This document shows positions 4,322-20,546 of a DNA stretch of 64,000 bases, piece by piece. The stretch is from NCBI GenBank assembly GCA_965208885.1, contig CBDBPS010000002.1:622731-686730 (forward strand), in the 5' to 3' direction. A model generated the notes under the pieces. It was not told the origin of the DNA and did not search any database. It saw only the letters and a program-made list of their open reading frames with translations. The DNA is from Dehalococcoidia bacterium (lineage in GTDB: Bacteria; Chloroflexota; Dehalococcoidia; UBA2979). The first letter of the stretch is position 1; each line of letters starts with the position of its first letter. Both the position numbers and the translations under genes were made by a program.

Positions 4322-4737
4322 CGTTCTCCCTTCGAAAGGGTCCGACTGCTCGGGGGTGACAGTAGCGGACAGTGAGGACGGTCCGCCGACTCTGTTCTAC
4401 GGCATCCACAAGCGTACGCGCGACATCACGGGCGGATGGAGGACTCCGTGAGACGCCACGGCTTCACGGTGGCGGTGATGAACGCGGACGTGGTGCCGCC
4501 CGAGCAGACAGGCCTGAACCTCATCGACTGGCTACGATCGTCTGGTTCGAGGCGGAGGTCTCGGTTTTCCAATCCACACGAAACGCTGCGTTACTCATGG
4601 GCCGTGAGTTTGCTTTCACAGGGCGGGTAGAGCCCGGCCCCTCATGAGGGCTGACACGCGCTACGGGATCCTCCGGGCACGATACCTTGGACGAGATGGG
4701 GAGCGCGACCTATCGTAGCCTGAGGAGAAGGGACGGC

Positions 4738-6726
4738 GTGAGCCGAGTGAGCGCTCTGAACATCAGCAGCTTCATCTGGGGCATCGCGGACGATGTACTG
4801 CGGGATGTCTACGTCCGGGGCAAGTACCGAGACGTCATCCTGCCCATGACGGTCATCCGCCGCCTCGATGCGGTCCTCGAACCAACCAAGGACGATGTGC
4901 TCCGCATGAAGGAGCAACTCGACTCAGCCGGCATCACCAACCAGGACAGTGCGCTGCGTCAGGCGTCAGGCGAGGCCTTCTACAACACGTCGCCTTTCCG
5001 TCTCCGCGACCTCACATCCCGCGGGAGGCAACAGCAGCTTCAGGCCGATTTCGAGGCGTACCTCGACGGCTTCTCACCCAACGTTCAGGAGGTCCTGGAG
5101 AAGTTCAAGTTCCGCAATCAGGTCCCCACACTCGTCGAGGCCGATGCGCTGGGCTTCCTGCTCGAGAAGTTCCTCGACCCATCGACCAATCTCAGCCCCC
5201 GCCCGGTTCTGAACGGCGACGGCTCCGTGCGTCTCGACGGTCTCGACAACCACGGCATGGGCACGGTCTTCGAGGAGCTCATCCGCCGCTTCAACGAAGA
5301 GAACAACGAGGAGGCCGGCGAGCACTTCACCCCCCGCGACGTGGTGCAGCTCATGGCGCGCCTCGTCTTCCTGCCCGTGGCCGAGCAGGTCCGGTCAGGC
5401 ACCTACCTGGTCTATGACGGCGCCTGCGGCACGGGCGGGATGCTGACCGTCGCCGAGGAGACGCTGACCCAGCTCGCGTCCGAGCATGGGAAGGAGGTCT
5501 CCGTCCACCTGTACGGGCAGGAGGTCAATCCCGAGACCTACGCGATCAGCAAGGCCGACCTGATCCTCAAGGGCGAAGGGACCGAGGCCGACAACATGCG
5601 GTTCGGCTCCACCCTCGCCGGCGACGCCTTCCCGTCCCGCGAGTTCGACTTCATGCTCTCCAACCCGCCTTACGGCAAGAGCTGGAAGACCGACCTGGAG
5701 CGTATGGGCGGCAAGCCCGCCATCACGGACCTGCGCTTCGTCGTCGAGCACGACGGCGATCCCGACTACTCGCTGATCACCCGCTCCAGCGACGGCCAGA
5801 TGATGTTCCTGGCCAACATGCTCAGCAAGATGAAGCGCACCACGCCGCTCGGCAGCCGCATCGCCGAGGTGCACAACGGGAGTTCGCTCTTCACCGGCGA
5901 TGCCGGTCAGGGCGAGAGCAACATCCGCCGCTGGACCATCGAGAACGACTGGCTCGAGGCGATCGTCGCCCTGCCGCTCAACATGTTCTACAACACCGGC
6001 ATCGCCACCTACATCTGGATCCTCAGCAACCGCAAGGCGGCGCATCGACGGGGCCACGTGCAGCTCATCGACGCCACACAGTGGTACCGCCCCCTGCGCC
6101 GGAACCTCGGGAGCAAGAACTGCGAACTCTCGGACGAGGACATCCGGCGCATCTGCGATGCCTTCATCGCTTTCGAGGAGACGGAGCAGTCAAAGATCTT
6201 CCCCAACGAGGCCTTCGGCTACCGGAAGGTCACCGTTGAACGGCCGCTGCGACTAGCGAGTGCAGACCCGCACCGGGCTCATACCGCCAAAGAGATCAAG
6301 GCGCTAAAGGACGGCAGCGAGCGCGCGAAGACCGCGCCGCCGGTCATCAGGCGTGTCCACAAGGCGGGAGTCGCGCCCGACCCTCTGCGCGGTCTCTTCC
6401 CCGCCACCATCGACGGCGGGTCGGTAGTCGTCGAGTACGAGCCTGACACCAACCTGCGCGATACCGAACAGGTGCCGCTGCTCCACGATGGCGGCATCGA
6501 AGGCTTCCTGAAACAGGAGGTGCTCCCCTACGCTCCAGATGCCTGGTACGGGGCGTCCAGCGTCAAGATCGGCTACGAGATCAGCTTCACGCGGCACTTC
6601 TACAAGCCTGAGCTGCTCCGAACCCTTGACGACATCCGTTCCGATATTCTGGCGGTCGATCGGGAGACGGAGGGGCTGCTGGCGGAGATCGTCGGCGCCT
6701 CAAGTATCAGAGAGGACATTCGGTAG
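4738..6726 (+). CDS. hsdM: Type I restriction-modification system, DNA methyltransferase subunit HsdM
   Basis: N-terminal HsdM domain (FIWGIADDVLRDVYVRGKYRDVILPMTVIRRLD), SAM motif YDGACGTGGML and catalytic NPPYGKSWK. GTG 4738 is preceded by GAGGAGAAGGGA. Alternative starts are TTG 4687 and ATG 4696. Confidence 0.95.
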   Translation: MSRVSALNISSFIWGIADDVLRDVYVRGKYRDVILPMTVIRRLDAVLEPTKDDVLRMKEQLDSAGITNQDSALRQASGEAFYNTSPFRLRDLTSRGRQQQLQADFEAYLDGFSPNVQEVLEKFKFRNQVPTLVEADALGFLLEKFLDPSTNLSPRPVLNGDGSVRLDGLDNHGMGTVFEELIRRFNEENNEEAGEHFTPRDVVQLMARLVFLPVAEQVRSGTYLVYDGACGTGGMLTVAEETLTQLASEHGKEVSVHLYGQEVNPETYAISKADLILKGEGTEADNMRFGSTLAGDAFPSREFDFMLSNPPYGKSWKTDLERMGGKPAITDLRFVVEHDGDPDYSLITRSSDGQMMFLANMLSKMKRTTPLGSRIAEVHNGSSLFTGDAGQGESNIRRWTIENDWLEAIVALPLNMFYNTGIATYIWILSNRKAAHRRGHVQLIDATQWYRPLRRNLGSKNCELSDEDIRRICDAFIAFEETEQSKIFPNEAFGYRKVTVERPLRLASADPHRAHTAKEIKALKDGSERAKTAPPVIRRVHKAGVAPDPLRGLFPATIDGGSVVVEYEPDTNLRDTEQVPLLHDGGIEGFLKQEVLPYAPDAWYGASSVKIGYEISFTRHFYKPELLRTLDDIRSDILAVDRETEGLLAEIVGASSIREDIR

Positions 6727-7226
6727 TGGCGACCCGCAGAAGAACCTTCTTCAGCTTTCACTACAAACCAGATAACTGGCGGGCGGCTCAGGTCAGGAAC
6801 ATGGGTGTCGTGGAGGGGAATGCTCCCGTTTCTGACAATGACTGGGAAACCATCCAGCGGGGCGGTGACGCTGCGATCAAGAGGTGGATCAACGGGCAAT
6901 TGAGTGGCAAGTCCTGCGCTATCGTCTTGATTGGCAGCAAGACAGCCGGGCGGAAGTGGATCAACTACGAGATTGAGACGGCTTGGAACGAAGGGAAGGG
7001 GCTGCTTGGAATCTACGTCCACAACCTGAAGGACGGGAGGGGCGCGCAATCCACTAAGGGTGACAACCCTTTCTCTGGATTCACTGTGGGTACTCGGAAG
7101 CTCTCGGGAATAGTACAGGCGTACTCTCCGCCGTACACCGGGAGCAGGAATGTCTACTCATACATCGAGCAGAACATCGCCGAGTGGGTTGAGGAAGCAA
7201 TCCGGATTCGGAAGAGCTACCCGTGA
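6726..7226 (+). CDS. ThsB-like TIR-like domain protein (DUF1863 family), copy 1
   Basis: RRTFFSFHYKPDNWRAAQVRN, IKRWINGQL, AIVLIGSKTAGRKWINYEIE and GLLGIYVHNLKDGRG..KGDNPF are hallmarks of Thoeris ThsB / DUF1863. The GTG start overlaps the hsdM stop (TAGTG). Confidence 0.8.
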   Translation: MATRRRTFFSFHYKPDNWRAAQVRNMGVVEGNAPVSDNDWETIQRGGDAAIKRWINGQLSGKSCAIVLIGSKTAGRKWINYEIETAWNEGKGLLGIYVHNLKDGRGAQSTKGDNPFSGFTVGTRKLSGIVQAYSPPYTGSRNVYSYIEQNIAEWVEEAIRIRKSYP

Positions 7227-7675
7227 CGCAAGAGGACGCCACACAGCCAGCGCTCAGCGAAGAGTCCGGAGCTGTTCACAAACACCTTGAGATCATGCAG
7301 GGCGTGATCAATCGCATGGCGGAGAACAGTCGCTCCTGCAAGGTGTGGTGCGTCACCCTCGTTTCAGCGACTCTGGTGCTGGTGGCGAGGACGGGGGAGC
7401 CAGAACACGCGCTTATCGCGTTAGCTCCTACTGTCCTGTTCTACGTCTTGGATGCCTACTACCTGTCGCTGGAACGAGCTTTCCGACAGTCATACAACAG
7501 CTTCGTTCGCAAGGTGCATCAGGGGCGCGTGTCGGTCTCGGACCTCTACACCGTGGTTCCTACCGGCTCGATAATGCGCGGAGCCCTCTGGGCGATGTCC
7601 AGATCCTTCTCCGTGCCGCCCTTCTATGCCGTCGTCGTCGTGACGATCTTGCTGGCGTGGTTGCTGGTGTTCTAA
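7223..7675 (+). CDS. Small predicted membrane protein (about three hydrophobic helices), unknown family
   Basis: 150 aa. Amphipathic N-terminal helix (HLEIMQGVINRMAENS), then the hydrophobic stretches VWCVTLVSATLVLVA, ALIALAPTVLFYVLDAYYL and PPFYAVVVVTILLAWLLVF. Start GTG overlaps the upstream stop (GTGA). Confidence 0.6.
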   Translation: MTQEDATQPALSEESGAVHKHLEIMQGVINRMAENSRSCKVWCVTLVSATLVLVARTGEPEHALIALAPTVLFYVLDAYYLSLERAFRQSYNSFVRKVHQGRVSVSDLYTVVPTGSIMRGALWAMSRSFSVPPFYAVVVVTILLAWLLVF

Positions 7676-7686
7676 GTCGGAGCAGG

Positions 7687-8256
7687 ATGATGGCCTCCGG
7701 TATACCCAGGCACAAGGTGTTCATCAGCTTCCATGAGCGCGACCTCGAGTACAAAGAGAGATTCGTGCGCATGATGGGGACGCGCGTCGTGGACAGGTCC
7801 GTTGATACGGGGGGCATCGACGACACCGGCCTGAAGACGGCGACCGTGCGGCAGAAGATCCGCGACGAGTACGTGCGGGACGCCACCGTCACGATCGTGC
7901 TTATCGGTCCGCGCACCTGGCAGCGCAAGCACGTGGACTGGGAGATCGGCTCCAGTATCAGGAACACGAGGAAGAACTCCCGCTGCGGACTGGTGGGCAT
8001 CATCCTTCCAAATCACCCGGCGCACGGGAAGAAGCAGCGGCGTAACCCGCGCCTCTTCCCTCCGCGCCTCGCGGACAACTGCCGGGGAGATGATCCCTAC
8101 GCGCTCATCTACGATTGGCCGAATCCCTGGACGCCTGCGAAGATCGCGGAGTGGATCCACCGCGCCTTCGTGCGCAGGAGGGGGACGCCCCCGGACAACT
8201 CGAGGGAGTCGTTCGCGCGCAACAGAACGAGGGACTACCGCAAGGGCTGGCAGTGA
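7687..8256 (+). CDS. ThsB-like TIR-like domain protein (DUF1863 family), copy 2 (divergent)
   Basis: The internal ATG-ATG at 7687/7690 follows GGAG. HKVFISFHERDLEYKERF... and ATVTIVLIGPRTWQRKHVDWEIGS match the TIR-like DUF1863 pattern. The longer track ORF from 7345 overlaps the TM gene in another frame and is rejected. Confidence 0.7.
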   Translation: MMASGIPRHKVFISFHERDLEYKERFVRMMGTRVVDRSVDTGGIDDTGLKTATVRQKIRDEYVRDATVTIVLIGPRTWQRKHVDWEIGSSIRNTRKNSRCGLVGIILPNHPAHGKKQRRNPRLFPPRLADNCRGDDPYALIYDWPNPWTPAKIAEWIHRAFVRRRGTPPDNSRESFARNRTRDYRKGWQ

Positions 8257-8261
8257 GCGAC

Positions 8262-9707
8262 ATGGAGCATACCCCGCCCCTCCACCCCTACCGCTCCTAC
8301 CGGCCCTCCGGTGTCGAATGGCTGGGCGACGTCCCGGAGCATTGGGATGTGCGGCGTATCAAGACGTTCCTTCGTGAACGTGACGAGCGGGGCGACGATG
8401 GGAACCGCGAGCTACTATCGCTGACTCGGACGCAGGGATTGGTGCCACAAGCCCAAGCGTCCGAACGAATCGCACTCACAGATAATCTGGTGAACCACAA
8501 GGTCTGCAGCCCTGGAGACCTCATTATGAACCGGATGCAAGCGTGGTCTGGTATGTTCGCGATTGCATCTCAAGAGGGCTTAGTTAGTCCTGATTACTGT
8601 GTCCTTCAACCTGTCGGGACCTCCTACGACATGCAGTACTTCGAGCGCTTATTCAAGGTACCTGCGATCGTTGGCGCATTCGCGAGATATTCGAAGGGAA
8701 TAGGCAGCGGATTCAACCGGCTATACACACCGGACCTTGGGAGAATCGCAGTATCGGTCCCGACCCGCACTGAGCAGCGCGCCATAACCGGCTACCTTGA
8801 CTACGTGGACCGGCACATCCGGCGCTACGTCGACGCCAAGCGGAAGCTCATCGAGCTACTGGAGGAGGAGCGGCAGGCCGTCGTCAACCAGGCCGTCACG
8901 CGGGGCCTCGACCGCAACGTGCGCCTCAAGCCCTCCGGCGTCGAGTGGCTGGGCGACATGCCCGAGCACTGGGAGGTGCGGCCACTCAAACGCGTTCTGC
9001 ATCGCCTCATCGACTGCGAACACAAGACCGCCCCTGCCGTCAATGCGAGCTCGTATCGGGTGGTGCGTACCTCCGCAGTACGGGGAGGCTCCCTCGTGAT
9101 TGCAGGTACGTATTGCACGTCGGAAGAGGCATTCGCTGAGTGGACGAGAAGGGGAGCGCCCGAGCCAGGTGATGTTATTTTCACGCGCGAGGCACCAGCA
9201 GGTGAGGCCTGTGTCGTGCCCGGCGACCTCAGCCTCTGCCTGGGGCAGCGTACCGTCTTGATGAAGGTCGACCGAAGTGCTTATGAGCCGCATTTCCTCG
9301 TCCACATGTTGTACGCAGGTCCATCGCGCGACGAGATGGAGTTGGCTTCCCGAGGCTCTACTGTTCCCCACTTCAATGTTGAAGATATCGGTGTGCTGCC
9401 GGTGCTCGCGCCGCCGGTTTCGGAACAAACCGCAATCGTCGGCTACCTCGCCCACGAAACCGCAGCGATCGATACCACCATCGACCGCTTGGGCCGCGAA
9501 ATCGAGCTGATTGAGGAGTACCGCACGAGGCTGGTCGCCGACGTGGTGACTGGTAAGCTCGACGTGCGGGGGGCAGAGGCGCAGTTGTTGGACGAGGAAG
9601 GCGACGACTGGCGAGAAGAAGCCCGGCCGGGGGACTTCCTTGATGATGACCGCATCCCCGAGGAGCCCTCGGACGGCCTGACAATTGAGAGTGAGGTAGC
9701 GAGATGA
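8262..9707 (+). CDS. hsdS: Type I R-M specificity subunit HsdS (two target-recognition domains)
   Basis: The conserved region is duplicated (PSGVEWLGDVPEHWDVRRIK / PSGVEWLGDMPEHWEVRPLK), with the central and C-terminal coiled-coil spacers (IELLEEERQAVVNQAVTRGLD; LIEEYRTRLVADVVTGKLDV) typical of HsdS. ATG 8262 lies 5 nt after the TIR2 stop. Confidence 0.9.
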   Translation: MEHTPPLHPYRSYRPSGVEWLGDVPEHWDVRRIKTFLRERDERGDDGNRELLSLTRTQGLVPQAQASERIALTDNLVNHKVCSPGDLIMNRMQAWSGMFAIASQEGLVSPDYCVLQPVGTSYDMQYFERLFKVPAIVGAFARYSKGIGSGFNRLYTPDLGRIAVSVPTRTEQRAITGYLDYVDRHIRRYVDAKRKLIELLEEERQAVVNQAVTRGLDRNVRLKPSGVEWLGDMPEHWEVRPLKRVLHRLIDCEHKTAPAVNASSYRVVRTSAVRGGSLVIAGTYCTSEEAFAEWTRRGAPEPGDVIFTREAPAGEACVVPGDLSLCLGQRTVLMKVDRSAYEPHFLVHMLYAGPSRDEMELASRGSTVPHFNVEDIGVLPVLAPPVSEQTAIVGYLAHETAAIDTTIDRLGREIELIEEYRTRLVADVVTGKLDVRGAEAQLLDEEGDDWREEARPGDFLDDDRIPEEPSDGLTIESEVAR

Positions 9708-9925
9708 CGGACTGGGAGAGCTGCCCCGCAGTCGAGAGCGTCCCCGGCAAGGTCAGCGGCGCCTCCATCTTCACAGGGACGAGGGTGCCGGTCTCGGCCC
9801 TGTTTGAGAACCTCGCGAGCGGGGCCACGGTTGAAGAGTTCCTGGACTGGTTTCCGGGCGTCGAGGAGTGGCAGGTGCGGGCTGTCCTCGATCACGAGGC
9901 GCAGGCCCTCCGGATGCCCGCCTAG
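9704..9925 (+). CDS. DUF433-domain protein (antitoxin-like)
   Basis: GASIFTGTRVPVSALFENLASGATVEEFLDWFPGVEEWQVRAVLDH matches the DUF433 pattern. ATGA overlap with the hsdS stop. Confidence 0.75.
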   Translation: MTDWESCPAVESVPGKVSGASIFTGTRVPVSALFENLASGATVEEFLDWFPGVEEWQVRAVLDHEAQALRMPA

Positions 9926-9927
9926 TC

Positions 9928-10251
9928 GTGAGGATCTTGTTCGATCAGGGCACGCCCGCTCCTCTCCGGCGGCACCTCGGCGACCATGAGGTCGATACCG
10001 TGGCGGAGCGAGGGTGGTCCAAGCTGAACAACGGAGACCTGGTCGGGAGGGCCGAGGACGAGGGCTACGACATCCTCGTCACGACCGACCAGAACATGCG
10101 CTACCAGCAGAACCTCGCTGGCCGGCGGCTGGCGGCGGTGGTGCTGCTGTCCACGGCGTGGCCGTACGTGCGGCTGCGGACCGCGGAGATTCGCGCGGCC
10201 ATCAGTGAGGTTCGTCCCGGGGAGTTCAGGGAAGTCCCGATTCCACGTTAG
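9928..10251 (+). CDS. DUF5615-family PIN-like protein (partner of DUF433)
   Basis: GTG 9928 lies 2 nt after the DUF433 stop. VRILFDQGTPAPLRRHLGDHEVDTV...GYDILVTTDQNM matches the DUF5615 pattern. The upstream extension from 9868 in the track overlaps DUF433 and is rejected. Confidence 0.7.
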   Translation: MRILFDQGTPAPLRRHLGDHEVDTVAERGWSKLNNGDLVGRAEDEGYDILVTTDQNMRYQQNLAGRRLAAVVLLSTAWPYVRLRTAEIRAAISEVRPGEFREVPIPR

Positions 10252-10314: not shown

Positions 10315-10632
10315 TTGCGAGGGAAGGCCGAGGCGAAAACGTTGCTCTGGGAGTGGGATCCAAATAAGAACCGAGCCAACCTTCGAGACCACGGTATCGA
10401 GTTCGAGACCGCTATACTCGTCTTCAGCGACCCGCTTGCGGCGACGGTTCCGGATCCACACCCGCACGAAGAGCGGTGGCGGACAATGGCAGTCGTGGGA
10501 GCGGCGGCCATCGTGGTCGTACACACTTCTCCCAAACTCGACCCGGGATCGGGCGAGGAGGTTGGACGCATCGTCTCCGCCCGCAAGCTGACCAGGCGCG
10601 AGCGACAACACTATGAAGAAGGACATGTCTGA
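10315..10632 (+). CDS. brnT: BrnT-family (DUF497) ribonuclease toxin
   Basis: LWEWDPNKNRANLRDHGIEFETAILVFSDPLAATVPD is the DUF497/BrnT N-terminal signature. The start is uncertain (TTG 10315 or TTG 10342 after GAGG). Confidence 0.75.
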   Translation: MRGKAEAKTLLWEWDPNKNRANLRDHGIEFETAILVFSDPLAATVPDPHPHEERWRTMAVVGAAAIVVVHTSPKLDPGSGEEVGRIVSARKLTRRERQHYEEGHV

Positions 10633-13600
10633 TCTGACGCAGCGCCAGAGGGACCAATTGCGGGCCCTGGAGGCCCTCCCGGACGATCAGATCGATCTGT
10701 CAGAAGCGCCCGAGGTCCTCGACTGGTCGAACGCGGCTCGCGGCAAGTACCACCGACCGGGCGAAGCACACGTCGGCCGTCCGCTTCGCACGACCACCGA
10801 CACGAGCGAGGGGGGGCTGGAGCGACTCATCTGCACGGCGCTGACTGGAGCGCCCTGCGACTCACCGGACAGCAGCGCGTTCCACGAGCGTCCGGCCACC
10901 TACAACGCGGGCTGGATCTGCGGAGAGCCACGCGACTACGACCGCGAATACTGCGTCGACCTCGTCCAGCTCGCCGCGTTTCTCCAGGCTACCCAGCCCG
11001 ACGCCGCCGAATCCTTCGAGTTCGACACGGATGGCCCGGCGCGGCGCAAGTTCCTGGCCCGACTGCAGGGCGAGATTACGAAGCGCGGGACCGTCGATGT
11101 GTTGCGGAAGGGCGTGAGCCACGGACCGCACCGGATCGACCTGATGTACGGCTCTCCGTCTCCGGGGAACGAGGCAGCGCGGGTCCGGTACGGGCAGAAC
11201 CGGTTCAGCGTCACGAGGCAACTCCGTTACAGCCGTGAAGAGGCCCAGCTCGCGCTCGACCTGTGCCTCTTCGTCAACGGCTTGCCCGTCGCCACCTTCG
11301 AGCTCAAGAACAGCCTGACCAAGCAAACAGTCGCCGATGCCGTCGAGCAGTACAAGCGGGATCGCAACCCACGGGAGAAGCTCTTCCAACTCGGCCGCTG
11401 CCTCGTCCACTTCGCCGTGGACGACCATGAGGTGCAGTTCTGCACCCAGCTGCGAGGCAGGGAGTCATGGTTCCTGCCCTTCAACCGTGGCTGGGACGGC
11501 GGCGCCGGCAACCCGACCAACCCCAACGGCCTCAAGACCGACTACCTGTGGAAGCAGGTCCTCACCCGCGACGGCCTCACCGACATCATCGAGAACTACG
11601 CCCAGATTGTGGAGACGAAGGATGAGAGGACCGGCCGCAAGAGGCGCGAGCAACTCTGGCCGCGCTACCACCAGCTCGACGTGGTACGGGAGTTGCTGGC
11701 CGACGCTTCGGAGCGTGGAGTCGGGTTCCGGTACCTGATCGAGCACTCGGCCGGCAGCGGAAAGTCGAACTCCATCGCCTGGCTGGCCCACCAATTGATC
11801 GGGCTGGAGCGAGACGGCGCCACCATCGTCGACTCGGTGATTGTCGTAACGGACCGGCGGGTGCTCGACAGGCAGATACGCGACACCATCAAGCAGTTCG
11901 CGCAGGTTGGCTCCGTCGTGGGCCACGCTCAGGATGCCGCCCATCTCCGCACCCTGCTCGAGGAGGGCAAGCGGATCGTCATCACCACCGTTCAGAAGTT
12001 CCCGTTCATCCTCGATGCGATCGGAGATGAGCATCGCGGGCGCAAGTTCGCCCTCATCATTGACGAGGCCCACTCAAGCCAGGGCGGACGGACATCGACG
12101 TCGGTCTCCATGGCACTGGGGAAGGCTGGCGTGGTGGACGAGGACGAGACGGCCGAGGACACGATCAACCGACTGATGGAGTCTCGGAAGCTGCTGCCCA
12201 ACGCTAGCTACTTCGCCTTCACCGCTACGCCCAAGAACAAGACCCTCGAGATATTCGGCGACCCCGCGACCGAGGGCGGGAAGACGCGGCACGCGCCATT
12301 CCACTCCTACACCATGAAGCAGGCGATCCAGGAGGGATTCATCATCGATGTCCTTCGGAACTACACGCCCGTGGACAGCTACTACCGGCTGGTGAAGACA
12401 GTGGAGGGAGACCCCGAGTTCGACACCAAGCGGGCCGGGAAGAAACTGCGCCGCTACGTCGAGGACAACGACCACGCGATCCGCCTGAAGGCCGAGATCA
12501 TGGTGGACCACTTTCACGAGCAGGTGGCGGGCCTTCAGAAGATCGGCGGCCAGGCGCGAGCGATGGTCGTCACGAGCAGCGTTCAGCGGGCGATCAGCTA
12601 CTACGACGCCATCCGCAACTACCTGATCGAGCGCAAGAGTCCGTACCGCGTCATAGTCGCCTTCTCGGGCGAGCGCGAGTACGGCGGCGCGAGAGTCACG
12701 GAGACGTCCCTCAACGGCTTCTCATCGAGCCTGATCGCCGAGAAGATTCGCGAGGAGCCATTCCGGTTCCTGGTCTGCGCCGACAAGTTCCAGACCGGCT
12801 ATGACGAGCCGCTGCTGCACACGATGTACGTAGACAAACAACTCGCGGGTGTGAAGGCCGTGCAGACGCTGTCGCGCCTCAACCGCGCCCACCCTCGGAA
12901 GCACGACGCCTTCGTGCTGGACTTCGCCAACGACGCCGACACGATCCAGACCGCCTTCGCCGACTACTACCGCACCACCGTACTCGCCGAAGAGACCGAT
13001 CCAGACAGGCTGCACGACCTCAAGGCGGCCCTCGACGGTTACCAGGTCTACGCGCCCGAGCAGGTGGACGATCTGGTGGAACGGTATCTCTCGGGAGCGG
13101 AACGGGACCGGCTCGACCCCATCCTGGACACCTGCGTCGCCGTCTACCGCGAGCAGCTGGACGAGGATGGCCAGGTCGACTTCAAGGGGAAGGCGAAGGC
13201 CTTTCTCCGAACCTACGACTTCCTGGCGGCCACCCTGCCGTACACGTATCCCGACTGGGAGAAGCTCTCGATCTTCCTGACGTTCCTCGTACCCAAACTG
13301 CCCGCCCCAATCGAGGACGACCTGTCAAAGGGGATCCTCGACGCCATCGACATGGACAGCTACCGCATCGAGAAGCAGGCGGTACGGGACATCCAGTTGC
13401 CAGACGAGGATGCCAAGATTGGTCCTGTTCCGACCGAGGGTGGAGGCCAGAAACCCGAGACGGAATTGGACCGGCTCTCGAACATCCTCAGGGAGTTCAA
13501 CGACCGCTTCGGCAGCATCGAGTGGAAGGACCACGACAAGATCGAGAAGGTGATCGCCGAGGAGTTGCCGAGGAAGGTTGCCGAGGATCGGGCGTATCAG

Positions 13601-13810
13601 AACGCGATGGCCAACTCCGACCGGCAGAACGCCCGGATCGAGCACGACAAGGCCCTCGAGCGCGCCATGACTGACGTGCTCGCCGACCACACCGAGCTGT
13701 TCAAGCAGTTCAGCGACAACGAGTCGTTCCGCCGCTGGCTCTCCGAGATGGTCTTCGCTGTCACCTATTCGGGATCGGCCTCGCCCGCCAGCACGGCGAT
13801 CGCGACGTAG
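10613..13810 (+). CDS. hsdR: Type I restriction enzyme R subunit HsdR with a ~55-aa N-terminal BrnA (DUF4415)-like extension
   Basis: Helicase motifs (SAGSGKSNSIAW, DEAHSSQGG, FTATPKNKT, QTLSRLNR) and an N-terminal nuclease region. The first ~50 residues (LTQRQRDQLRALEALPDDQIDLSEAPEVLDWSNAARGKYHRP) look like the N-terminal part of a BrnA antitoxin. The start overlaps the brnT 3' end. Confidence 0.9.
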   Translation: MKKDMSDLTQRQRDQLRALEALPDDQIDLSEAPEVLDWSNAARGKYHRPGEAHVGRPLRTTTDTSEGGLERLICTALTGAPCDSPDSSAFHERPATYNAGWICGEPRDYDREYCVDLVQLAAFLQATQPDAAESFEFDTDGPARRKFLARLQGEITKRGTVDVLRKGVSHGPHRIDLMYGSPSPGNEAARVRYGQNRFSVTRQLRYSREEAQLALDLCLFVNGLPVATFELKNSLTKQTVADAVEQYKRDRNPREKLFQLGRCLVHFAVDDHEVQFCTQLRGRESWFLPFNRGWDGGAGNPTNPNGLKTDYLWKQVLTRDGLTDIIENYAQIVETKDERTGRKRREQLWPRYHQLDVVRELLADASERGVGFRYLIEHSAGSGKSNSIAWLAHQLIGLERDGATIVDSVIVVTDRRVLDRQIRDTIKQFAQVGSVVGHAQDAAHLRTLLEEGKRIVITTVQKFPFILDAIGDEHRGRKFALIIDEAHSSQGGRTSTSVSMALGKAGVVDEDETAEDTINRLMESRKLLPNASYFAFTATPKNKTLEIFGDPATEGGKTRHAPFHSYTMKQAIQEGFIIDVLRNYTPVDSYYRLVKTVEGDPEFDTKRAGKKLRRYVEDNDHAIRLKAEIMVDHFHEQVAGLQKIGGQARAMVVTSSVQRAISYYDAIRNYLIERKSPYRVIVAFSGEREYGGARVTETSLNGFSSSLIAEKIREEPFRFLVCADKFQTGYDEPLLHTMYVDKQLAGVKAVQTLSRLNRAHPRKHDAFVLDFANDADTIQTAFADYYRTTVLAEETDPDRLHDLKAALDGYQVYAPEQVDDLVERYLSGAERDRLDPILDTCVAVYREQLDEDGQVDFKGKAKAFLRTYDFLAATLPYTYPDWEKLSIFLTFLVPKLPAPIEDDLSKGILDAIDMDSYRIEKQAVRDIQLPDEDAKIGPVPTEGGGQKPETELDRLSNILREFNDRFGSIEWKDHDKIEKVIAEELPRKVAEDRAYQNAMANSDRQNARIEHDKALERAMTDVLADHTELFKQFSDNESFRRWLSEMVFAVTYSGSASPASTAIAT

Positions 13811-13845: not shown

Positions 13846-14762
13846 CGCTCAACGAAGGCCGGGTTCGGACCCCGGCGACACTTCGGCGTGGACCACCGCC
13901 GTCGACGCGACGTTGATCGCTCAACGAAGGCCGGGGTTCGGACCCCGGCGACACTGGGAATGGCGTAGAACGCGGGCCGCCCGTGGTCGTCGCTCAACGA
14001 AGGCCGGGGTTCGGACCCCGGCGACACAGGGAGGTCTCGACGACCGGGAACACAGTCCGGACCGCTCAACGAAGGCCGGGGTTCGGACCCCGGCGACACC
14101 TGGCGCAGTTGCCGCACGTCCTCCACGAGCCCGCTTCGCTCAACGAAGGCCGGGGTTCGGACCCCGGCGACACGCCGCGTCGGCGGCGAGGGCGGGGAGC
14201 TTCCAGATGCCGCTCAACGAAGGCCGGGGTTCGGACCCCGGCGACACTTCCTGAGCGTGGACGTGGCAACGGCGGTCGGCGCGCGCTCAACGAAGGCCGG
14301 GGTTCGGACCCCGGCGACACTACTCTCAACCTGGAAGACAAGGGCCTCAGCCCTTCGCTCAACGAAGGCCGGGGTTCGGACCCCGGCGACACAGGGCGCT
14401 TGCCGAACCGTGACGGGAAGCACCGGGAAGCGCTCAACGAAGGCCGGGGTTCGGACCCCGGCGACACTCAGGTCTCTTACGTCAACCGCATACCCCTGTG
14501 GGGACGCTCAACGAAGGCCGGGGTTCGGACCCCGGCGACACCCCCAACATCCGCTACTACGGCACGGCCTTTGACGACGCTCAACGAAGGCCGGGGTTCG
14601 GACCCCGGCGACACGTGGATCCAGATGGTCGGGTGGGCATCCCAGGGCACCGCTCAACGAAGGCCGGGGTTCGGACCCCGGCGACACCCGGCGAACACGA
14701 GCTCGATCGTGAGGCCGACCGCTTCCGCTCAACGAAGGCCGGGGTTCGGACCCCGGCGACAC
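13846..14762 (-). CRISPR. CRISPR array: 13 repeats (37 nt; distal copy 36 nt) and 12 spacers (35-38 nt)
   Basis: Plus-strand repeat is CGCTCAACGAAGGCCGGGGTTCGGACCCCGGCGACAC (internal stem GCCGGGG/CCCCGGC). Repeat starts: 13846, 13918, 13991, 14063, 14137, 14211, 14284, 14356, 14431, 14505, 14578, 14651, 14726. The copy at 13846 lacks one G, which marks the degenerate distal end. The strand is assigned from the cas operon and leader position. Confidence 0.97.
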
Positions 14763-14916
14763 TGCTAATCGTATCAGGGGAGGAGCCTGAAGAGAGGATT
14801 GCCCACTATTGCGGCTGTGGAAGGCCCTGGGCGGTGCGGGATCCGGGCCGTTCATGGCTCGATTCTACCCAATATCACCACTGACTCGCTGAATCACCGG
14901 ACGTTCGCAGACCGTG
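14763..14916 (-). promoter_or_regulatory. Putative CRISPR leader between cas2 and the first (newest-end) repeat
   Basis: 154-nt non-coding stretch, visibly less G+C-rich than its surroundings. It lies between the cas2 stop and the intact repeat end of the array. The degenerate repeat is at the opposite end. Confidence 0.5.
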
Positions 14917-15207
14917 TCAGAGCAGCCATGGCTGACCAAGCTTCCGTCCCTGGCTTCGCCCGAGGCGCAGCGTAGCGTCGTCGATCTTGGCGGGGAAGCG
15001 GTAGACGATCACGGAGTCCCGCTCGTGATCGATCACGTCGGCGACCTCGCCGATCATGCGAGCCAGCCGCGTCGCGGAGAGCCGACACTCGAACACCGAG
15101 AACTGCACGCGCTGGCCGTACTTCTCGCACATGTCGGCAATCCGCCTGAGTCGCACTCCTCCGGCGCCTTCCGTGTCAGCGATGTCGTACGTGATGAGAA
15201 CGTCCAT
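14917..15207 (-). CDS. cas2: CRISPR-associated endoribonuclease Cas2
   Basis: 96 aa. MDVLITYDIAD...VQFSVFEC is the typical Cas2 ferredoxin-fold N-terminus. Confidence 0.9.
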   Translation of the reverse strand: MDVLITYDIADTEGAGGVRLRRIADMCEKYGQRVQFSVFECRLSATRLARMIGEVADVIDHERDSVIVYRFPAKIDDATLRLGRSQGRKLGQPWLL

Positions 15208-15210
15208 CGT

Positions 15211-16227
15211 TCAAGGCAGCACGAACGGAGGATACGCCGGCAGGTCGCCGCGCAGGTGTCGCGCGAGCAACGTGGCCTGGACCGAGGGCAGCGCCCACCG
15301 CTCCACCGGTCGCCCCAGGAGTTGATGCTGAATCTCCGTCTCCTTGTGCGCCTCCCACGCTTCGAGCAACCGCGTTCGTCCGTCGCTGCTGAGGTAGACA
15401 CCGCCGCCCGGCGTGTGGTCGAAGTCGCCCACGCCGATCTGCCGGCGGCGGACGAGCGACACGACGAAACGATCCGTCAGCGCCCGGAACTCTTCGGCAA
15501 GGTCCAGCGCGAGCGACGGTCGGCCCGCGCGAGGACGGTGGAAAAACCCCATTTGGTAGTCGAGCCCGACGCTCTCCGCAGCGCCGATGCACTCCGTCAC
15601 GAGCATCCCGTAGCAGAAGCCGAGCAGGGCGTTGACCGGATCGCGGGGCGGCCGGCGCGTCCTCCCGGAGAACTCGAGCTCGCTTGACGACACGGCCTGG
15701 GCGAGCGCGCGAAAGTAGATCCTGGCCGCATCCCCCTCGACGCCTCGCACGTGGTCGCCGGTTTCTGCTTCGGCCAACCGAGCGATGCGCTCCCTGATCT
15801 GCTCGCCTCGGGCGGCGAGCTCTTCGGCCGCGGCAGGGTCCTTCTCGTCCCGCGACCAGCGACGGACGATCGTGCTGCTGTTCTGGAGCTTGGCCGCCAC
15901 CACCGCCCTGGCCACGTCCAACGACCGCGCATCGTCCGTCACCGTCTCGAACTGCGCCGTGCGCAGGTGCACGTTCCCGCTGGTCGGGCCGTTGACGACG
16001 AACCGGATCGCGCCGTTCATCTGGAGGGCCGCGACCCGCACGCCGCGGCGCACGCACGCGTCGAGCGCCTGCGTGGTGATCTGCGCGCCGCCCAGCACGA
16101 CGAGCGCGTCGACCGCTTCAAGCGGAACGCGCTGGCTGCCTTCCGGCGAAGAGACGAGCAACGATCCCCGCCGATGCTGCACCCGCGCGCGGTGGTTCCT
16201 GACGTAGACGGTGTTCAGGTACCTCAT
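15211..16227 (-). CDS. cas1: CRISPR-associated integrase Cas1
   Basis: MRYLNTVYVRNHRARVQHRRGSLLV... and ...PRDPVNALLGFCYGML... are Cas1 motifs. The ATG at 16227 overlaps the cas4 stop (ATGA). The longer track ORF (to 16515) overlaps cas4. Confidence 0.95.
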   Translation of the reverse strand: MRYLNTVYVRNHRARVQHRRGSLLVSSPEGSQRVPLEAVDALVVLGGAQITTQALDACVRRGVRVAALQMNGAIRFVVNGPTSGNVHLRTAQFETVTDDARSLDVARAVVAAKLQNSSTIVRRWSRDEKDPAAAEELAARGEQIRERIARLAEAETGDHVRGVEGDAARIYFRALAQAVSSSELEFSGRTRRPPRDPVNALLGFCYGMLVTECIGAAESVGLDYQMGFFHRPRAGRPSLALDLAEEFRALTDRFVVSLVRRRQIGVGDFDHTPGGGVYLSSDGRTRLLEAWEAHKETEIQHQLLGRPVERWALPSVQATLLARHLRGDLPAYPPFVLP

Positions 16228-16832
16228 CGGAAGACGATGTTCTCCATGTAGCGGTTCACCCTGCGCGGCGCGCTGGAGAGTTCCGGCAGGCAGTGGTACA
16301 GGAGCTGGCACTCCGTACAGCGCGCGTCGTTGGGTGCCGCGGGCAGCTCGAACGTCAGGAGTTGCTTCCTGATCTGGTCGATGACCTCGCGCACCTCGCG
16401 GCGCAGCGCCTCGGTGAAGTCCACCTGCACGCGTCGTCGCGGTCCGCCGTACCACACGTACCCGTGTGGTATCTCGACATCGAGCATCTCCTCCAGACAG
16501 AGCGCCTGTGCGCACAGCTGCAGGTCCGCGGCGGAGCCGTGGCGCACGCCGGCCTTGTACTCGACGGGACGAACAGCGTCGCCTGCCACCTCGACGGCGT
16601 CGGCGCGACCCGACAGTCCCAACTCCTCCGACCAGAGGGGGATCGCCCTGAGCACCTGCTTCCCCCGCTCCTGGCGATGCTCTCCGCTATCGACCCGGCG
16701 GTGGGCGCGGGTTCCCCTGACGGTGTGGGCGTTGTCGCTCCACACACCGTCGCAGTGGATGAGGGCGCACTGCCTCGGGCAGTACACGAAGTGCTCGATC
16801 GCGGAAATCTGGACGACGGGCTCGGGTGTCAT
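16224..16832 (-). CDS. cas4: CRISPR-associated RecB-like exonuclease Cas4 (not fused to Cas1)
   Basis: N-terminal FVYCPRQCAL plus a C-terminal CTECQLLYHC cysteine cluster, and the PD-(D/E)xK core (GRADAVE...VEYK). Confidence 0.9.
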   Translation of the reverse strand: MTPEPVVQISAIEHFVYCPRQCALIHCDGVWSDNAHTVRGTRAHRRVDSGEHRQERGKQVLRAIPLWSEELGLSGRADAVEVAGDAVRPVEYKAGVRHGSAADLQLCAQALCLEEMLDVEIPHGYVWYGGPRRRVQVDFTEALRREVREVIDQIRKQLLTFELPAAPNDARCTECQLLYHCLPELSSAPRRVNRYMENIVFR

Positions 16833-17722
16833 AGCCGCACCGCTCCGATCGCCCGCGTCTTCTCTTCGCCTCTCGGCTTATAAGACGCACTTTGCCACGC
16901 TGCATGAACACCGAGCCGTGCCCAGCCAGCCTTCCGTACGGGGTTCCAGAGGTCCAGGAGCGCATCGATACCGTCGTCGTCGAGCGGCTGGCTCCACGCT
17001 GGCCAGTGGAAGCTGCGCCGCTCCCCGCTCCCGTCCACCTGTTGCCAGCCCCGCTGGCGTGCTGAAGCATCGGCGGACCGGCCAAGCCGCCTGTCAGCCC
17101 CTCGTCCTCGTACCGGCAGGAGGGCGAGACCGAAGAACGCGAGGACCTCGACGACGGGATCAACCCAAGGGTCCGTCTTGTCGACCAGAGAACCCAACCG
17201 CGTCTGGTCGAATCCCAGACCGCTCGCCTGTATGCGATCAGCGTTGCCTGCCAGCGATGCGTGGATGAGGGATCCACCATCGAGGGGCCTGTATACCTTC
17301 AACAGCCGATGGTGCAGCCACTTCATGGGGCCCGTGCCAGGCGGATCAAGGGGTGCGTGTTCCACCAGGCCGTCTCGATCGACAGCGAGATCGGTCATCG
17401 TTGACGAGAGCGTCCACGAGTGCTCGTCGCTCCGCGCAGCGCGTGCCCGCGCCGCGAAAGCCTCGACGGGCACCCTCCGCTGGAGCCTGGCGGTGCCTCG
17501 CCAGTCCTCCGCAATCGGCAACTGGGCCAGCGACTCCGCGTCCGGCCAGGACTCGACGAGCGCGGCCACCGGATCGGCCTGCTCGGATGAGAGCACCGCC
17601 ACGGGCTCCGCATCGGTCGTCCAGTGCAGCCGTATGCGCTCGTCGAGGACGGTGGCACCCACCGCCGCGAGCCAGGCGTTGACCCACGAAGCACGCCAGC
17701 CCGGACACACCACCTCCATCAT
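16829..17722 (-). CDS. Type I-U-associated protein, Csb3/Cas8u-like (tentative large-subunit substitute)
   Basis: 297 aa, located between cas3 and cas4 with 4-nt overlaps at both ends. The N-terminus CPGWRASWVNAWLAAVGATVL resembles the N-terminal pattern I associate with Csx17/Csb3 proteins. The assignment rests on position plus weak motif similarity only. Confidence 0.5.
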   Translation of the reverse strand: MMEVVCPGWRASWVNAWLAAVGATVLDERIRLHWTTDAEPVAVLSSEQADPVAALVESWPDAESLAQLPIAEDWRGTARLQRRVPVEAFAARARAARSDEHSWTLSSTMTDLAVDRDGLVEHAPLDPPGTGPMKWLHHRLLKVYRPLDGGSLIHASLAGNADRIQASGLGFDQTRLGSLVDKTDPWVDPVVEVLAFFGLALLPVRGRGADRRLGRSADASARQRGWQQVDGSGERRSFHWPAWSQPLDDDGIDALLDLWNPVRKAGWARLGVHAAWQSASYKPRGEEKTRAIGAVRL

Positions 17723-20520
17723 CACGATCCCTCCTGTGGCACATCGACACCGGCGGAAACCGCGTGGTCCGCCCGGATAACGACCGCCTCCAGCAACCCC
17801 AACCCCCACGGACCAAAGCGCTCGTTCAGCTTTCTGAAGCGGCGTGGCTGGTCCCAGTCCACGCGGGCGAGGTCAGCGGGCGCGCTGACCGACAGGCCAT
17901 CCACGACGGCAGACACGTTCGCAGCCGTGCCGTCGCGCGTTGCTGGTGGCGGCACTAGCGGCCGACCCCTGCCGTGGTGGCTGATCACGAGGTGGAGCAA
18001 TAGGTCGCGGTGCTCGGGATCACCCCACGAGGGGCGCCGCTCCAGCCACGCGCGCACCAGACGGGCCGACAGATTCTCGTGGCGGCCGCCACGGGGCCAG
18101 CCGGACGCGGCGCGTGTCTTCTCCCAGCTATGGCGGGCGGTGGTCGACTTGGCCATGAGCGCACCGCGCTGCCCCTCGGGGTCAAGCCATCTCTGGAAGC
18201 GGCGGTCGGCCTTGCCGATGTCATGCAACGCTCCGGCGCGCTCCACGACCTCGGCCAGCGTCGAGGGAAGACCGATGCGCTCGGCGATGGTGCGCGCCAT
18301 GGCCCCCACCGCCCGGCCGTGCTTATCGAGCTCGACCGCTTCGGACGTCAACGACATCTCGTCGCCTTCGCTGCCAAAGTCGCTACTGGGGCGCTGGGAC
18401 TCAGGCGCCACGACCCGCAGCCGGGCGACTTCGAGCCGCGGACGCTCAACGGCCGGACGCAGTGCGTCGGTGAACGCGACCCACTCCCCGTCGTTCCATC
18501 CGGCCGGCGATTCGGCGGCCCGGAGCGCAGCCAGGATCGCCATCACCGCCTCGTCCCGGTCGGACTGAGCGATCTCGTCCTCCTCATCCTCCCCCAGCGC
18601 GATCTCCAGCTGCGGCCCCACCTCGACGCCGCACAGACGCCCGATCGCCTTCGCGTCCAGAGGCAGTCCCTGTCCCGCCAGTGATGCGTCCACGACCGGC
18701 TTCGACGCGTCCGGGTCCCAGCCAAAGTGATCCAGCAAGCCGCGGTCGGCGGGAAGCACGATCTGGTCGCCCGGCCGCAGGTCCGCAGCACTGGTCCGAT
18801 CCACCGTCATGCCGTCGGGGGCGAGCCGGTGAACGTCTTCGTCGTCCTGCAGTGCCTCCCACACCTCGCGTATCGGAACGTCCACGGCCTCGCGATCGCT
18901 GGCGCGCGGCCAGAGCCGCTGGCCCTCCTCGGGTACGTGGACGCGCCAGATGAGCGCCACCGAGTACTCGGCCCCCTGGATGCCGCTGAAGTAAGGCTCC
19001 ACGGGAGCTTCCCCGTCGGGCCGGGTGGTCGTCTTCGTCCACTCCCACAGAATCCCCGGCAGCACCTCCGGCGCCCGTCCGGGATCGTCGCCCGGAGCAC
19101 CCAGCACCTCGGCCACCTGCGCGGGCGGAAGGTTCACTGTGCGGTCGTCCCCGTCGGAGCACGCGCTCTCCAGGCGCTGCAGCACCCGTGCGGGCTCCTC
19201 GCCGTAGACGGGCCAGGATTCGGAGTCCTTCCCGCGGCTCGCCCTGCCTCGCCGCTTCGGGGGCGGCGCATGTACGTACACCGCCCGCGCGTGCTGGTGA
19301 TGTCCGAGCCGGTTCAATCTCCCCAGCCGCTGCGTGAGCGCCCGCACGCCACACGCCTCCGTGACGAGGTACTCCGCGTCGAGGTCCGCACCGACCTCCA
19401 GGGTCTGCGTCGCGACTACGACAAGGTGCCGTTCCCGCGAGGAGTCTAGGGATCGGGTTGCGGCCATGCCGGTAGCGGGATCGAGGATGCACGCCCGAAT
19501 CCGTTCGGCCTCCCGCTCGCGGTTGAGCCCGGTCAACAGGAGGAGATCGACATCCGGCAACCAGCCGCGCAGGCGCTCGAACGTCTCCCGCGCCGTCTTC
19601 GGCGTGTTCGCGAAGACCAGGCAGGATGCCGGCGCTCTGTCCGCGAGCAGGTCGCGTGCCGCTTCCGCGAGGAGGTTGGCGGTGTCGCCCTTCTCGAACA
19701 CGCGAACCTCCAGTGGCTTCGTGGCGTGCAGCCGCCGCTCGATGACCGGGTTCGTCCGATCTTCCTCGTCGAGGTCGAACCGCTCGCCCGTGGCGTCGCC
19801 GGTCGCTGTGAGCGCCGTGATGCTCGCTCGCGAACGGAGCTCCCCGAGCGGGGCCTCCGCGTTAGGTGTGCACTCGGCGAGCGCAGCCACCAATGCCCGC
19901 AGGTGTGGCGCCAAGTGCGCTTCGTCCAGGAGGACGAGGCTGTCCGTCCCTGCCATCGCGGCGTCGATCGGGCGAAGCGACCGTGACGATCCATAGCCCC
20001 GGAACAGGAGCCGCGAGCCGTACATCGGCAACGTGCAGAGGATGACCGTGGGCCGCGAGGGATCGGTTGGCGTCCGAGACGCGACCCCGCCGCGTAGCCG
20101 AATCACATCGAGCGGCGGTGCGCCTGGGTCGGCCGAGAGGGAGCGGAGGCGCTCGGCGACCGCAGCGACAACCTCGCGATCCTTGCCCGAGAGTCCGCTC
20201 GCATCGGGTTCCCTGAGCACCCGCGCCAGCCGCCCCTCCGCATGCTCGTGGGTCGAGTCCACCAGCAGGCGACGATTGACGACCCACCAGATGCGGGTCG
20301 GCGCCGTCCGCCGCTGAGGGTCTCGGTCCGCCTGTGTCGCGAGCCACCACACCGCGATGTCGAGGCACGCGGTCTTGCCCAGCCCGGTCGGAACGCCGAC
20401 CCGCTCAGGCCACCTGTCCGTCTCGGCGACCTGCCGGGCCAGTCGCTCCTGCCACGGGAACGGCGTTCGCCCGTGGATGGCCTCGTAGAAGTCGGCGAAG
20501 GTGGGGAGGGGAGCCATCAT
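17722..20520 (-). CDS. cas3: CRISPR-associated helicase/nuclease Cas3 with a C-terminal HD domain (type I-U/I-G architecture)
   Basis: The start MMAPLPTFADFYEAIHGRTPFPWQERLA follows an SD-like GGTGGAA. Helicase motifs VPTGLGKTAC, VLLDEAH and QRLGRLNR. The C-terminal HD motifs are LDKHGRAV...GALHDIGKADRRFQ...HLVISHHG. Confidence 0.9.
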   Translation of the reverse strand: MMAPLPTFADFYEAIHGRTPFPWQERLARQVAETDRWPERVGVPTGLGKTACLDIAVWWLATQADRDPQRRTAPTRIWWVVNRRLLVDSTHEHAEGRLARVLREPDASGLSGKDREVVAAVAERLRSLSADPGAPPLDVIRLRGGVASRTPTDPSRPTVILCTLPMYGSRLLFRGYGSSRSLRPIDAAMAGTDSLVLLDEAHLAPHLRALVAALAECTPNAEAPLGELRSRASITALTATGDATGERFDLDEEDRTNPVIERRLHATKPLEVRVFEKGDTANLLAEAARDLLADRAPASCLVFANTPKTARETFERLRGWLPDVDLLLLTGLNREREAERIRACILDPATGMAATRSLDSSRERHLVVVATQTLEVGADLDAEYLVTEACGVRALTQRLGRLNRLGHHQHARAVYVHAPPPKRRGRASRGKDSESWPVYGEEPARVLQRLESACSDGDDRTVNLPPAQVAEVLGAPGDDPGRAPEVLPGILWEWTKTTTRPDGEAPVEPYFSGIQGAEYSVALIWRVHVPEEGQRLWPRASDREAVDVPIREVWEALQDDEDVHRLAPDGMTVDRTSAADLRPGDQIVLPADRGLLDHFGWDPDASKPVVDASLAGQGLPLDAKAIGRLCGVEVGPQLEIALGEDEEDEIAQSDRDEAVMAILAALRAAESPAGWNDGEWVAFTDALRPAVERPRLEVARLRVVAPESQRPSSDFGSEGDEMSLTSEAVELDKHGRAVGAMARTIAERIGLPSTLAEVVERAGALHDIGKADRRFQRWLDPEGQRGALMAKSTTARHSWEKTRAASGWPRGGRHENLSARLVRAWLERRPSWGDPEHRDLLLHLVISHHGRGRPLVPPPATRDGTAANVSAVVDGLSVSAPADLARVDWDQPRRFRKLNERFGPWGLGLLEAVVIRADHAVSAGVDVPQEGS

Positions 20521-20546
20521 CGTTCCACCGCGAAGGTGCTCGCTCG

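Follow-up and report, generated by a model that had tools for sequence, protein, structure and literature searches.

Can the restriction subunit of a type I restriction–modification (R-M) system serve as the antitoxin of a toxin encoded immediately upstream of it? The question is raised by a 64-kb stretch of DNA from a Dehalococcoidia bacterium (contig CBDBPS010000002.1; hereafter the window, to whose position 1 all window coordinates refer), which carries, on the + strand, a type I R-M operon interrupted by several cargo genes. Among these, brnT sits between hsdS and hsdR. BrnT and BrnA constitute a type II toxin–antitoxin (TA) system, known from Brucella abortus as BrnTA. In the window, the antitoxin and hsdR share a single open reading frame (ORF) of 1065 codons (10613–13810, + strand). 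The original prediction described brnT followed by an N-terminal BrnA peptide joined in frame to HsdR, and this description is borne out by PF04365 for the toxin, by P0002 and 7VD7_B for the peptide and by the Pfam domains of HsdR. The fusion is real and inherited; on balance, we favor a reading in which HsdR would be the antitoxin of BrnT, with the RNase held inactive on the HsdR N-terminus. The parts of the fused locus are listed below.

10342–10632, + strand: brnT, an RNase toxin of the RelE superfamily (BrnT/DUF497), by Pfam PF04365 and chain A of PDB entry 7VD7.
10613–10632, + strand: stretch shared by the end of brnT and the beginning of the fused ORF; the brnT stop (10630–10632) lies within the latter.
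10613–10759, + strand: BrnA-derived, putatively toxin-binding segment, codons 1–49, ending ...ALEALPDDQIDLSEAPEVLDWSNAARGKYHRP, by homology to P0002 and 7VD7_B and by motif retention.
10760–10789, + strand: linker GEAHVGRPLR, codons 50–59, from the alignments.
10790–10792, + strand: ACG (Thr60) in place of the canonical hsdR start; orthologues begin MTTDTSE.
10790–13810, + strand: HsdR body with PD-(D/E)xK nuclease domain, superfamily 2 (SF2) motor and C-terminal domains, by Pfam and PADLOC REase_I.

The BrnT domain of the toxin is full-length (Pfam PF04365, E = 2e-20, profile positions 1–77 of 77), and residues 2–94 align with chain A of 7VD7, the “toxin” chain (E = 7.5e-19). Its ORF opens at TTG 10315, and TTG 10342 is the probable start because the alignment with 7VD7 chain A begins there. 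BrnT_toxin is the sole domain match of the 96-aa protein, and a PADLOC scan gave no match. The gene lies 5′ of the antitoxin reading frame and overlaps it.

Homology of the fused N-terminus to BrnA rests on two proteins. A search of 5.8 billion proteins with the first 61 residues of the fused ORF returned two matches, P0002 and P0001. P0002 (96 aa, Pfam BrnA_antitoxin, PF14384) is 57% identical to residues 1–54 of the fused ORF (E = 7.8e-12), and past this alignment it runs on as VKKQITIRLDADIVAWFK..., which is the ribbon-helix-helix (RHH) domain. P0001 has the same truncated BrnA peptide and comes from a related contig; a protein search with a junction-spanning 71-mer gave 11 word-index candidates, with P0001 as the only match. 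Residues 11–49 of the fused ORF are furthermore similar to 7VD7_B, the “antitoxin” chain (E = 1.4e-4). This chain comprises 44 residues and ends ...RGKFFRP, and the window peptide (...RGKYHRP) stops resembling BrnA at the same point. As 7VD7_B ends at the fusion break, the retained peptide corresponds to the antitoxin piece crystallised with a BrnT homologue; a literature search found no paper describing 7VD7. The profile comparison of residues 1–70 with BrnA, suggested along with the original prediction, did not yield the expected result, as Pfam and NCBIfam scans of the 70-aa fused N-terminus alone returned no BrnA match. The peptide is missed by these profiles because the PF14384 match in P0002 (residues 24–87) is mostly to the RHH half; therefore, the BrnA homology is shown via P0002 and 7VD7_B.

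The RHH half itself, predicted to be missing, left no trace anywhere in the window by tblastn, and the antitoxin thus lacks the domain expected of a BrnTA pair. Only 10 codons (GEAHVGRPLR) stand between ...HRP and the HsdR-homologous TTDTSEGGLERLIC. They comprise a remnant of the first RHH β-strand residues (canonical VKKQIT, fused G-x-K-H-V-G) and a few codons of uncertain origin. The RHH domain is deleted rather than frameshifted.

Where does translation of this ORF begin? In agreement with the earlier reading of the sequence, the hsdR frame starts inside the brnT 3′ end, at ATG 10613 (codon 1) or ATG 10625 (codon 5). The second ATG overlaps the brnT stop as ATGTCTGA, with the purine-rich GAAGAAGGAC just 5′ of it. 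Because codon 5 overlaps the brnT stop and is preceded by purine-rich AAGAAGG/AGGAAGG, the arrangement suggests translational coupling of the fused ORF start to the brnT stop. Within codons 1–85 of the window, in-frame ATG, GTG or TTG occurs at codons 1, 5 and 16 only, and hence, as predicted, no start follows the TTG at codon 16 up to the conserved HsdR region. More than 100 HsdR orthologues have the N-terminus MTTDTSEKGLERLIC (MTTDTSEKGLE in this HsdR family), at which the window HsdR has no start of its own. Since codons 17–85 hold no in-frame start, HsdR is inseparable from the peptide unless translation initiates at a non-canonical codon.

The HsdR body contains the Pfam domains expected of such a subunit (HSDR_N, SWI2_SNF2, ResIII and T1R_D3-like). 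The match to TIGR00348 (hsdR) has E = 7e-62 at 209.9 bits, under the NCBIfam curated cut-off of 284.55. In translation, the catalytic motifs are intact, i.e. D-x13-ELK of the nuclease and GSGKSNS and DEAH of the motor. A slippage-prone G7 homopolymer (10810–10816; GAG GGG GGG, Glu-Gly-Gly) lies 20 nt into the HsdR-homologous sequence; at this site, relatives read GAG AAG/AGG/CGA GGN.

The fusion recurs in other genomes. The fused set comprises the window and 16 further loci (L001, L003–L016 and L084), and the database proteins P0003, P0004, P0005 and P0030 are fused proteins with contigs L003–L006. A peptide-alignment scan of 185,579 species-representative genomes gave 80 loci, mostly in metagenome-assembled genomes (MAGs) of Chloroflexota (Dehalococcoidia, Tepidiformaceae, Caldilineaceae); 11 of the 16 other fused loci are from species-representative genomes, 10 labelled Chloroflexota and one Gemmatimonadetes. 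The search of the representative library is useful for variants and provides no prevalence figure, full-length fusions being apparently hidden there, presumably by clustering with canonical HsdRs at 50% identity. On the L003–L006 contigs the gene order is hsdS, usually DUF433, sometimes DUF5615, brnT and brnA′::hsdR. Nine genomes (L008–L016) have intact in-frame fused ORFs of 1051–1067 aa. L007 has the same junction and its fused ORF leaves the contig end after 611 aa; in L084, where the linker differs, the fused ORF comprises 1070 aa. The sequences with the “HVG-linker” (n = 15) align without gaps across the junction. In these 15 loci, codon 60 is ACG, GCG, TCG, CCG or ACC and never a start codon, which fits a single ancestral ATG-to-ACG loss at the canonical hsdR start. 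Twelve of the loci have ATG and three have GTG at codon 5, the conserved initiator, preceded in every case by AAGAAGG, AGGAAGG or AAGCAGG. In L001 the junction is 1 nt short, breaking the frame a few bases 5′ of the site equivalent to the G7 run, and the whole R-M locus is decayed. L007 (JAPOOQ010000105.1) is the closest relative of the window, with 98% nucleotide identity over brnT and 95% over the peptide. This 5-kb contig was assigned to a Gemmatimonadetes MAG, whereas the other fused loci of the genome scan are from Chloroflexota MAGs, and the bin label points to mis-binning or horizontal transfer.

Is the peptide maintained as a protein? As all-pair averages, the ratio of the proportions of nonsynonymous and synonymous differences (pN/pS) is 0.165/0.467 = 0.35 for peptide codons 6–49 and 0.289/0.434 = 0.67 for codons 50–61, indicating weaker constraint on the linker. 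For the HsdR body, all-pair values do not hold where the ungapped alignment is disrupted by indels, and only indel-free pairs are meaningful; one such pair, window and L011, gave 0.034/0.238. The fused set moreover keeps every strongly conserved position of 58 canonical BrnA N-termini (A18, L19, L22, P23, D24, D25, I27, P33, E34, L36, D37, W38, S39, R43, G44, F/Y46, Y47, R48 and P49). The peptide is under purifying selection and is kept as a protein with BrnA-like constraints, and the linker is much freer. The original prediction had offered a deletion-generated fusion and a functional coupling as alternatives. The deletion origin stands, the product was later inherited in frame under purifying selection, and the two are not mutually exclusive.

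The locus is best explained by the following sequence of events. A deletion took out the RHH domain of BrnA together with the brnA stop codon and everything as far as hsdR, and the canonical hsdR start was lost afterwards, by change of ATG to ACG. HsdR is now translated only from the brnA start, probably coupled to the brnT stop, and its N-terminus carries the segment of about 45 residues that binds the toxin in BrnA-type antitoxins. BrnT would be bound and neutralised at this N-terminus, making HsdR a cis-encoded antitoxin. Without the RHH domain the pair would no longer repress its own promoter, and the fate of the toxin would depend on how much HsdR is present and on whether it is intact. 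We infer binding of BrnT by the fused peptide, toxicity of BrnT and the biological role from the sequence. The most likely role would be addiction, in that cells no longer making the hsdR 5′ end would lose their only cis-encoded antidote; if true, this would confer stability on both the restriction subunit and its island.

Related loci offer possible precursors. Related genomes, in which separate brnA genes were to be sought, do hold complete ones: in L029, L044 and L081, which belong to the same R-M family, a complete brnA occupies the hsdS–hsdR interval, with brnT upstream in L029 and L081, and these loci are possibly precursor-like. Other cargo is found in the same place, including a gene pair of the window.

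9704–10251, + strand: DUF433/DUF5615 (PIN-like) gene pair, following hsdS and preceding brnT, by Pfam.

The DUF433 gene (Pfam E = 5.5e-14) overlaps the DUF5615 gene (E = 7e-4, weaker than the Pfam cut-off). L089 has the same pair directly 5′ of a canonical hsdR, in the order hsdS-DUF433-DUF5615-hsdR, and the pair is likely a second TA or TA-like cargo in the hsdS–hsdR slot. DarT-DarG, a single-stranded DNA ADP-ribosyltransferase toxin with a macrodomain antitoxin, precedes a canonical hsdR in L087 (6287–8004) and is found immediately 5′ of the fused hsdR in L016 (4268–5979). The slot is evidently a landing site for TA cargo. A neighbor-joining tree of HsdR N-termini has no support values and was consulted only where a fused and a canonical HsdR body are clearly near-identical. 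In it, fused HsdRs are scattered among canonical ones. L014, for instance, falls beside the canonical P0044 and P0034, and it shares an identical peptide with L004 and L015. As fused and canonical HsdRs intermix while these peptides are identical, the tree suggests exchange of hsdR bodies by recombination downstream of a fused 5′ module that is itself conserved.

How well does an antitoxin role of HsdR agree with the fate of the toxin? An intact brnT lies directly upstream in 13 of the 17 fused loci; it is frameshifted in two and deleted in two. One of the frameshifts speaks for the proposed role, since in L001 brnT was frameshifted together with decay of the R-M locus. Several points weigh against it. 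The toxin has been lost in four of 17 loci while the fused hsdR persists: besides the decayed L001, brnT of L007 is frameshifted (+2, “TC”) though 98% identical to the window over the aligned brnT region, and the gene is deleted in L008, which retains a 3′ remnant, and in L016, for which any remnant is tentative only. Upstream of fused hsdR in the two deletion loci stands a helix-turn-helix (HTH)/M78-peptidase gene or DarTG. Because fused hsdR persists with brnT frameshifted or deleted, the fusion can outlive the toxin. An antitoxin joined to a large protein is also unlikely to be labile like classical antitoxins. An AlphaFold2 model of residues 1–320 (77 sequences) had a mean predicted local distance difference test score (pLDDT) of 43.8, too low to be informative, and only a helix at residues 10–20 was suggested. 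A BrnA elsewhere in the genome is possible, and tblastn found none within the 64-kb window. Lastly, codon 54 is GTG, a potential internal start, in nine of 15 fused loci; the window has GTC.

The same observations bear on a more elaborate role. BrnT could act as a guard, parked on the HsdR N-terminus and released upon HsdR degradation or displacement as an abortive-infection or growth-arrest backup, with phage counter-defence or ClpXP-type restriction alleviation as possible triggers. By analogy this may be entertained, but we regard it as rather unlikely: repeated loss of the toxin with the fusion kept counts against a strict guard role and weakens the idea of release by anti-restriction, and the probable stability of a tethered antitoxin also speaks against a strict guard.

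Slightly less probable still, in our view, is a frozen accident in which the BrnA remnant matters only as hsdR start and for ribosome loading. Neutralisation of BrnT would then be irrelevant to HsdR function, BrnT would be in the course of disappearing, and there would be no regulatory coupling. Persistence of fused hsdR with brnT deleted (L008, L016) or frameshifted (L007, L001) is what such an accident would leave, and with the canonical ATG gone the upstream start is indispensable whatever BrnT does. Moreover, the hsdS–hsdR slot takes TA cargo generally (DarTG in L016 and L087, DUF433/DUF5615 in L089 and the window). A mere leader, however, fails to explain why all BrnA motif residues are kept, or why pN/pS is lower in the peptide than in the linker, and brnT is intact in most fused loci. 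The losses of brnT look recent (3′ remnant in L008, possibly in L016), and relaxed constraint would not yet be visible.

It is very improbable that HsdR is made mostly from an internal or non-canonical start (ACG at codon 60 in the window, GTG at codon 54 elsewhere), with untagged HsdR in the cell and the fused form as a minor product. The frequent GTG at codon 54, and the V of H-V-G kept in 13 of 15 loci, would agree with such a start. Yet the window, L006, L007, L010 and L011 have GTC or CGC at this codon and no ATG, GTG or TTG between codons 16 and 68, and no Shine-Dalgarno-like sequence precedes codon 54 or 60 in the window. As no stop lies upstream, initiation at codon 1 or 5 necessarily yields the fusion.

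An assembly or sequencing artefact, for which a read-level check at 10780–10800 had been proposed, or a recent inactivating deletion (the real genome having normal brnA and hsdR, or a dead hsdR) would be compatible with the G7 run just 3′ of the junction and the 1-nt shift in L001, and is effectively refuted by the conserved in-frame junction in 16 other independent assemblies, some chromosome-level, by ungapped alignments, by ORFs intact over 1051–1070 codons in 10 other genomes with intact catalytic motifs, and by the RHH domain, for which there is neither space nor trace; because the fusion is inherited in frame under purifying selection in many genomes, assembly error and a fresh pseudogene are both ruled out.

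HsdR as the tethered antitoxin of BrnT is the reading that we favor, and HsdR is not the only protein joined to a BrnA peptide. Other linker classes are seen in L084, P0201, P0208 and P0246, and there is a QVYVP linker class as well; the classes possibly represent independent fusion origins. P0130 has two BrnA N-peptides in tandem ahead of the HsdR N-terminus. In L052 (6001–8481), an intact brnT is followed immediately by an 826-aa ORF that opens with the same BrnA N-peptide, again broken at ...FYRP, and continues as a helicase with DEAD, Helicase_C and MrfA Zn-binding (MZB, DUF1998) domains. By its predicted domains it represents, in a single instance, another type of large SF2 protein to which the BrnA peptide is fused, and the helicase’s own start may be an internal Met. 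In P0142 the BrnA peptide is followed by sequence that is AbrB/MazE-like by eye. Complete BrnA is followed by a Swt1-like HEPN domain in P0240, and in L048 (6001–7986) it reads through into a 560-aa region of unassigned similarity.

The R-M operon of the window also contains hsdM and hsdS, both in the hsdR locus as befits a type I system, and it is surrounded and interrupted by further genes.

2007–2384: PIN-domain protein, upstream of hsdM.
2522–4321, − strand: type IV restriction enzyme of the GmrSD type (GmrSD_N and GmrSD_C), upstream of hsdM.
4687–6726, + strand: hsdM, methyltransferase of the type I system, by PADLOC MTase_I (E = 3e-238).
6726–7226: TIR-like protein of the ThsB type, between hsdM and hsdS.
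7223–7675: small protein matching the PADLOC candidate PDC-M50A, between hsdM and hsdS.
about 7684–8256: second TIR-like protein, between hsdM and hsdS.
8115–9707, + strand: hsdS, specificity subunit, by PADLOC Specificity_I (E = 1e-99, residues 59–490).

The true start of hsdS is probably downstream of TTG 8115. The two TIR-like genes and the small gene that they flank (6726–8256) resemble a candidate defence system (PDC-M50) inserted into the R-M operon, and L010 has the same TIR/PDC-M50-like insert. About 50 nt past the hsdR stop begins a CRISPR array (13861–14765) of 13 repeats of about 37 nt at a spacing of 72–75, beyond which the minus strand (14917–20868) encodes cas2, cas1, cas4, a 326-aa ORF and Cas3 with a C-terminal HD domain. 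The whole stretch around the R-M operon is a defence island.

What, finally, does the fusion resemble? Close in layout are the canonical type I R-M loci L089, L087, L029, L044 and L081 of the same HsdR family, which share the order hsdM-hsdS-(cargo)-hsdR and HsdRs of 74–83% identity; HsdR of L081 is fragmented. Their cargo is DUF433/DUF5615, DarTG or a complete brnTA pair. In L087 and L089, in contrast to the window, hsdR opens with an ATG of its own (MTTDTSE...) and the cargo is encoded in separate ORFs. No description of an antitoxin–HsdR fusion was found in the searchable literature. If HsdR is indeed the BrnT antidote, nature would have hard-wired a restriction enzyme and a TA module into one protein, a simple model for coupling first-line (restriction) to second-line (toxin) immunity in defence islands, and the short toxin-binding antitoxin peptide would be transferable onto other proteins. 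As Pfam sees nothing in the fused N-terminus, domain-based surveys miss such fusions, and N-terminal extensions of other defence proteins may conceal similar tethers. That the architecture is conserved is well supported; its function we infer.

Compared with BrnTA, the locus shows the same gene order, with the toxin first and the antitoxin start overlapping it, a full-length BrnT domain and a retained N-terminal antitoxin motif (LPDDQID...PE.LDWS.A.RG.FYRP). It differs in that a 1006-residue HsdR replaces the RHH domain for DNA binding and dimerisation, so that the fused “antitoxin” is neither small nor an autorepressor, and in that Pfam is blind to the remnant. Single-chain BrnT–BrnA fusion proteins have been catalogued (PMC11980606) and likewise involve a BrnTA component in a gene fusion. 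There, the toxin is joined to its own complete antitoxin, with RHH or HTH retained, whereas here only the toxin-binding peptide is kept, joined to an unrelated defence enzyme; HsdR is not mentioned in that work (PMC11980606).

A possible functional parallel is provided by PrrC, an anticodon nuclease that the type IC R-M enzyme EcoprrI keeps under guard and that T4 Stp activates (PMC12707154). When restriction is alleviated in type IA and IB systems, moreover, it is HsdR that ClpXP degrades (PMC12707154). For PrrC and BrnT alike, the RNase gene is embedded in the type I hsd locus, with hsdS and hsdR on either side, and the RNase is presumably silenced by physical association with the restriction enzyme, which for BrnT is predicted from the fused peptide. 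Conversely, BrnT is a small RelE-fold RNase and not an ABC-ATPase-type anticodon nuclease; it has no homology to PrrC, and its 96 residues do not hold the NTPase and anticodon nuclease domains of a PrrC-type protein. The silencing determinant is here an identifiable antitoxin peptide covalently fused to HsdR. A guard logic of this kind may be PrrC-like but reinvented from a TA module, and given L052 and P0130 it may be a more general trick. In summary, the fusion is neither a canonical BrnTA pair, as the RHH domain is absent, nor a canonical HsdR, as its own start is absent, nor a PrrC homologue, and by analogy it may work like the PrrC–EcoprrI pair.

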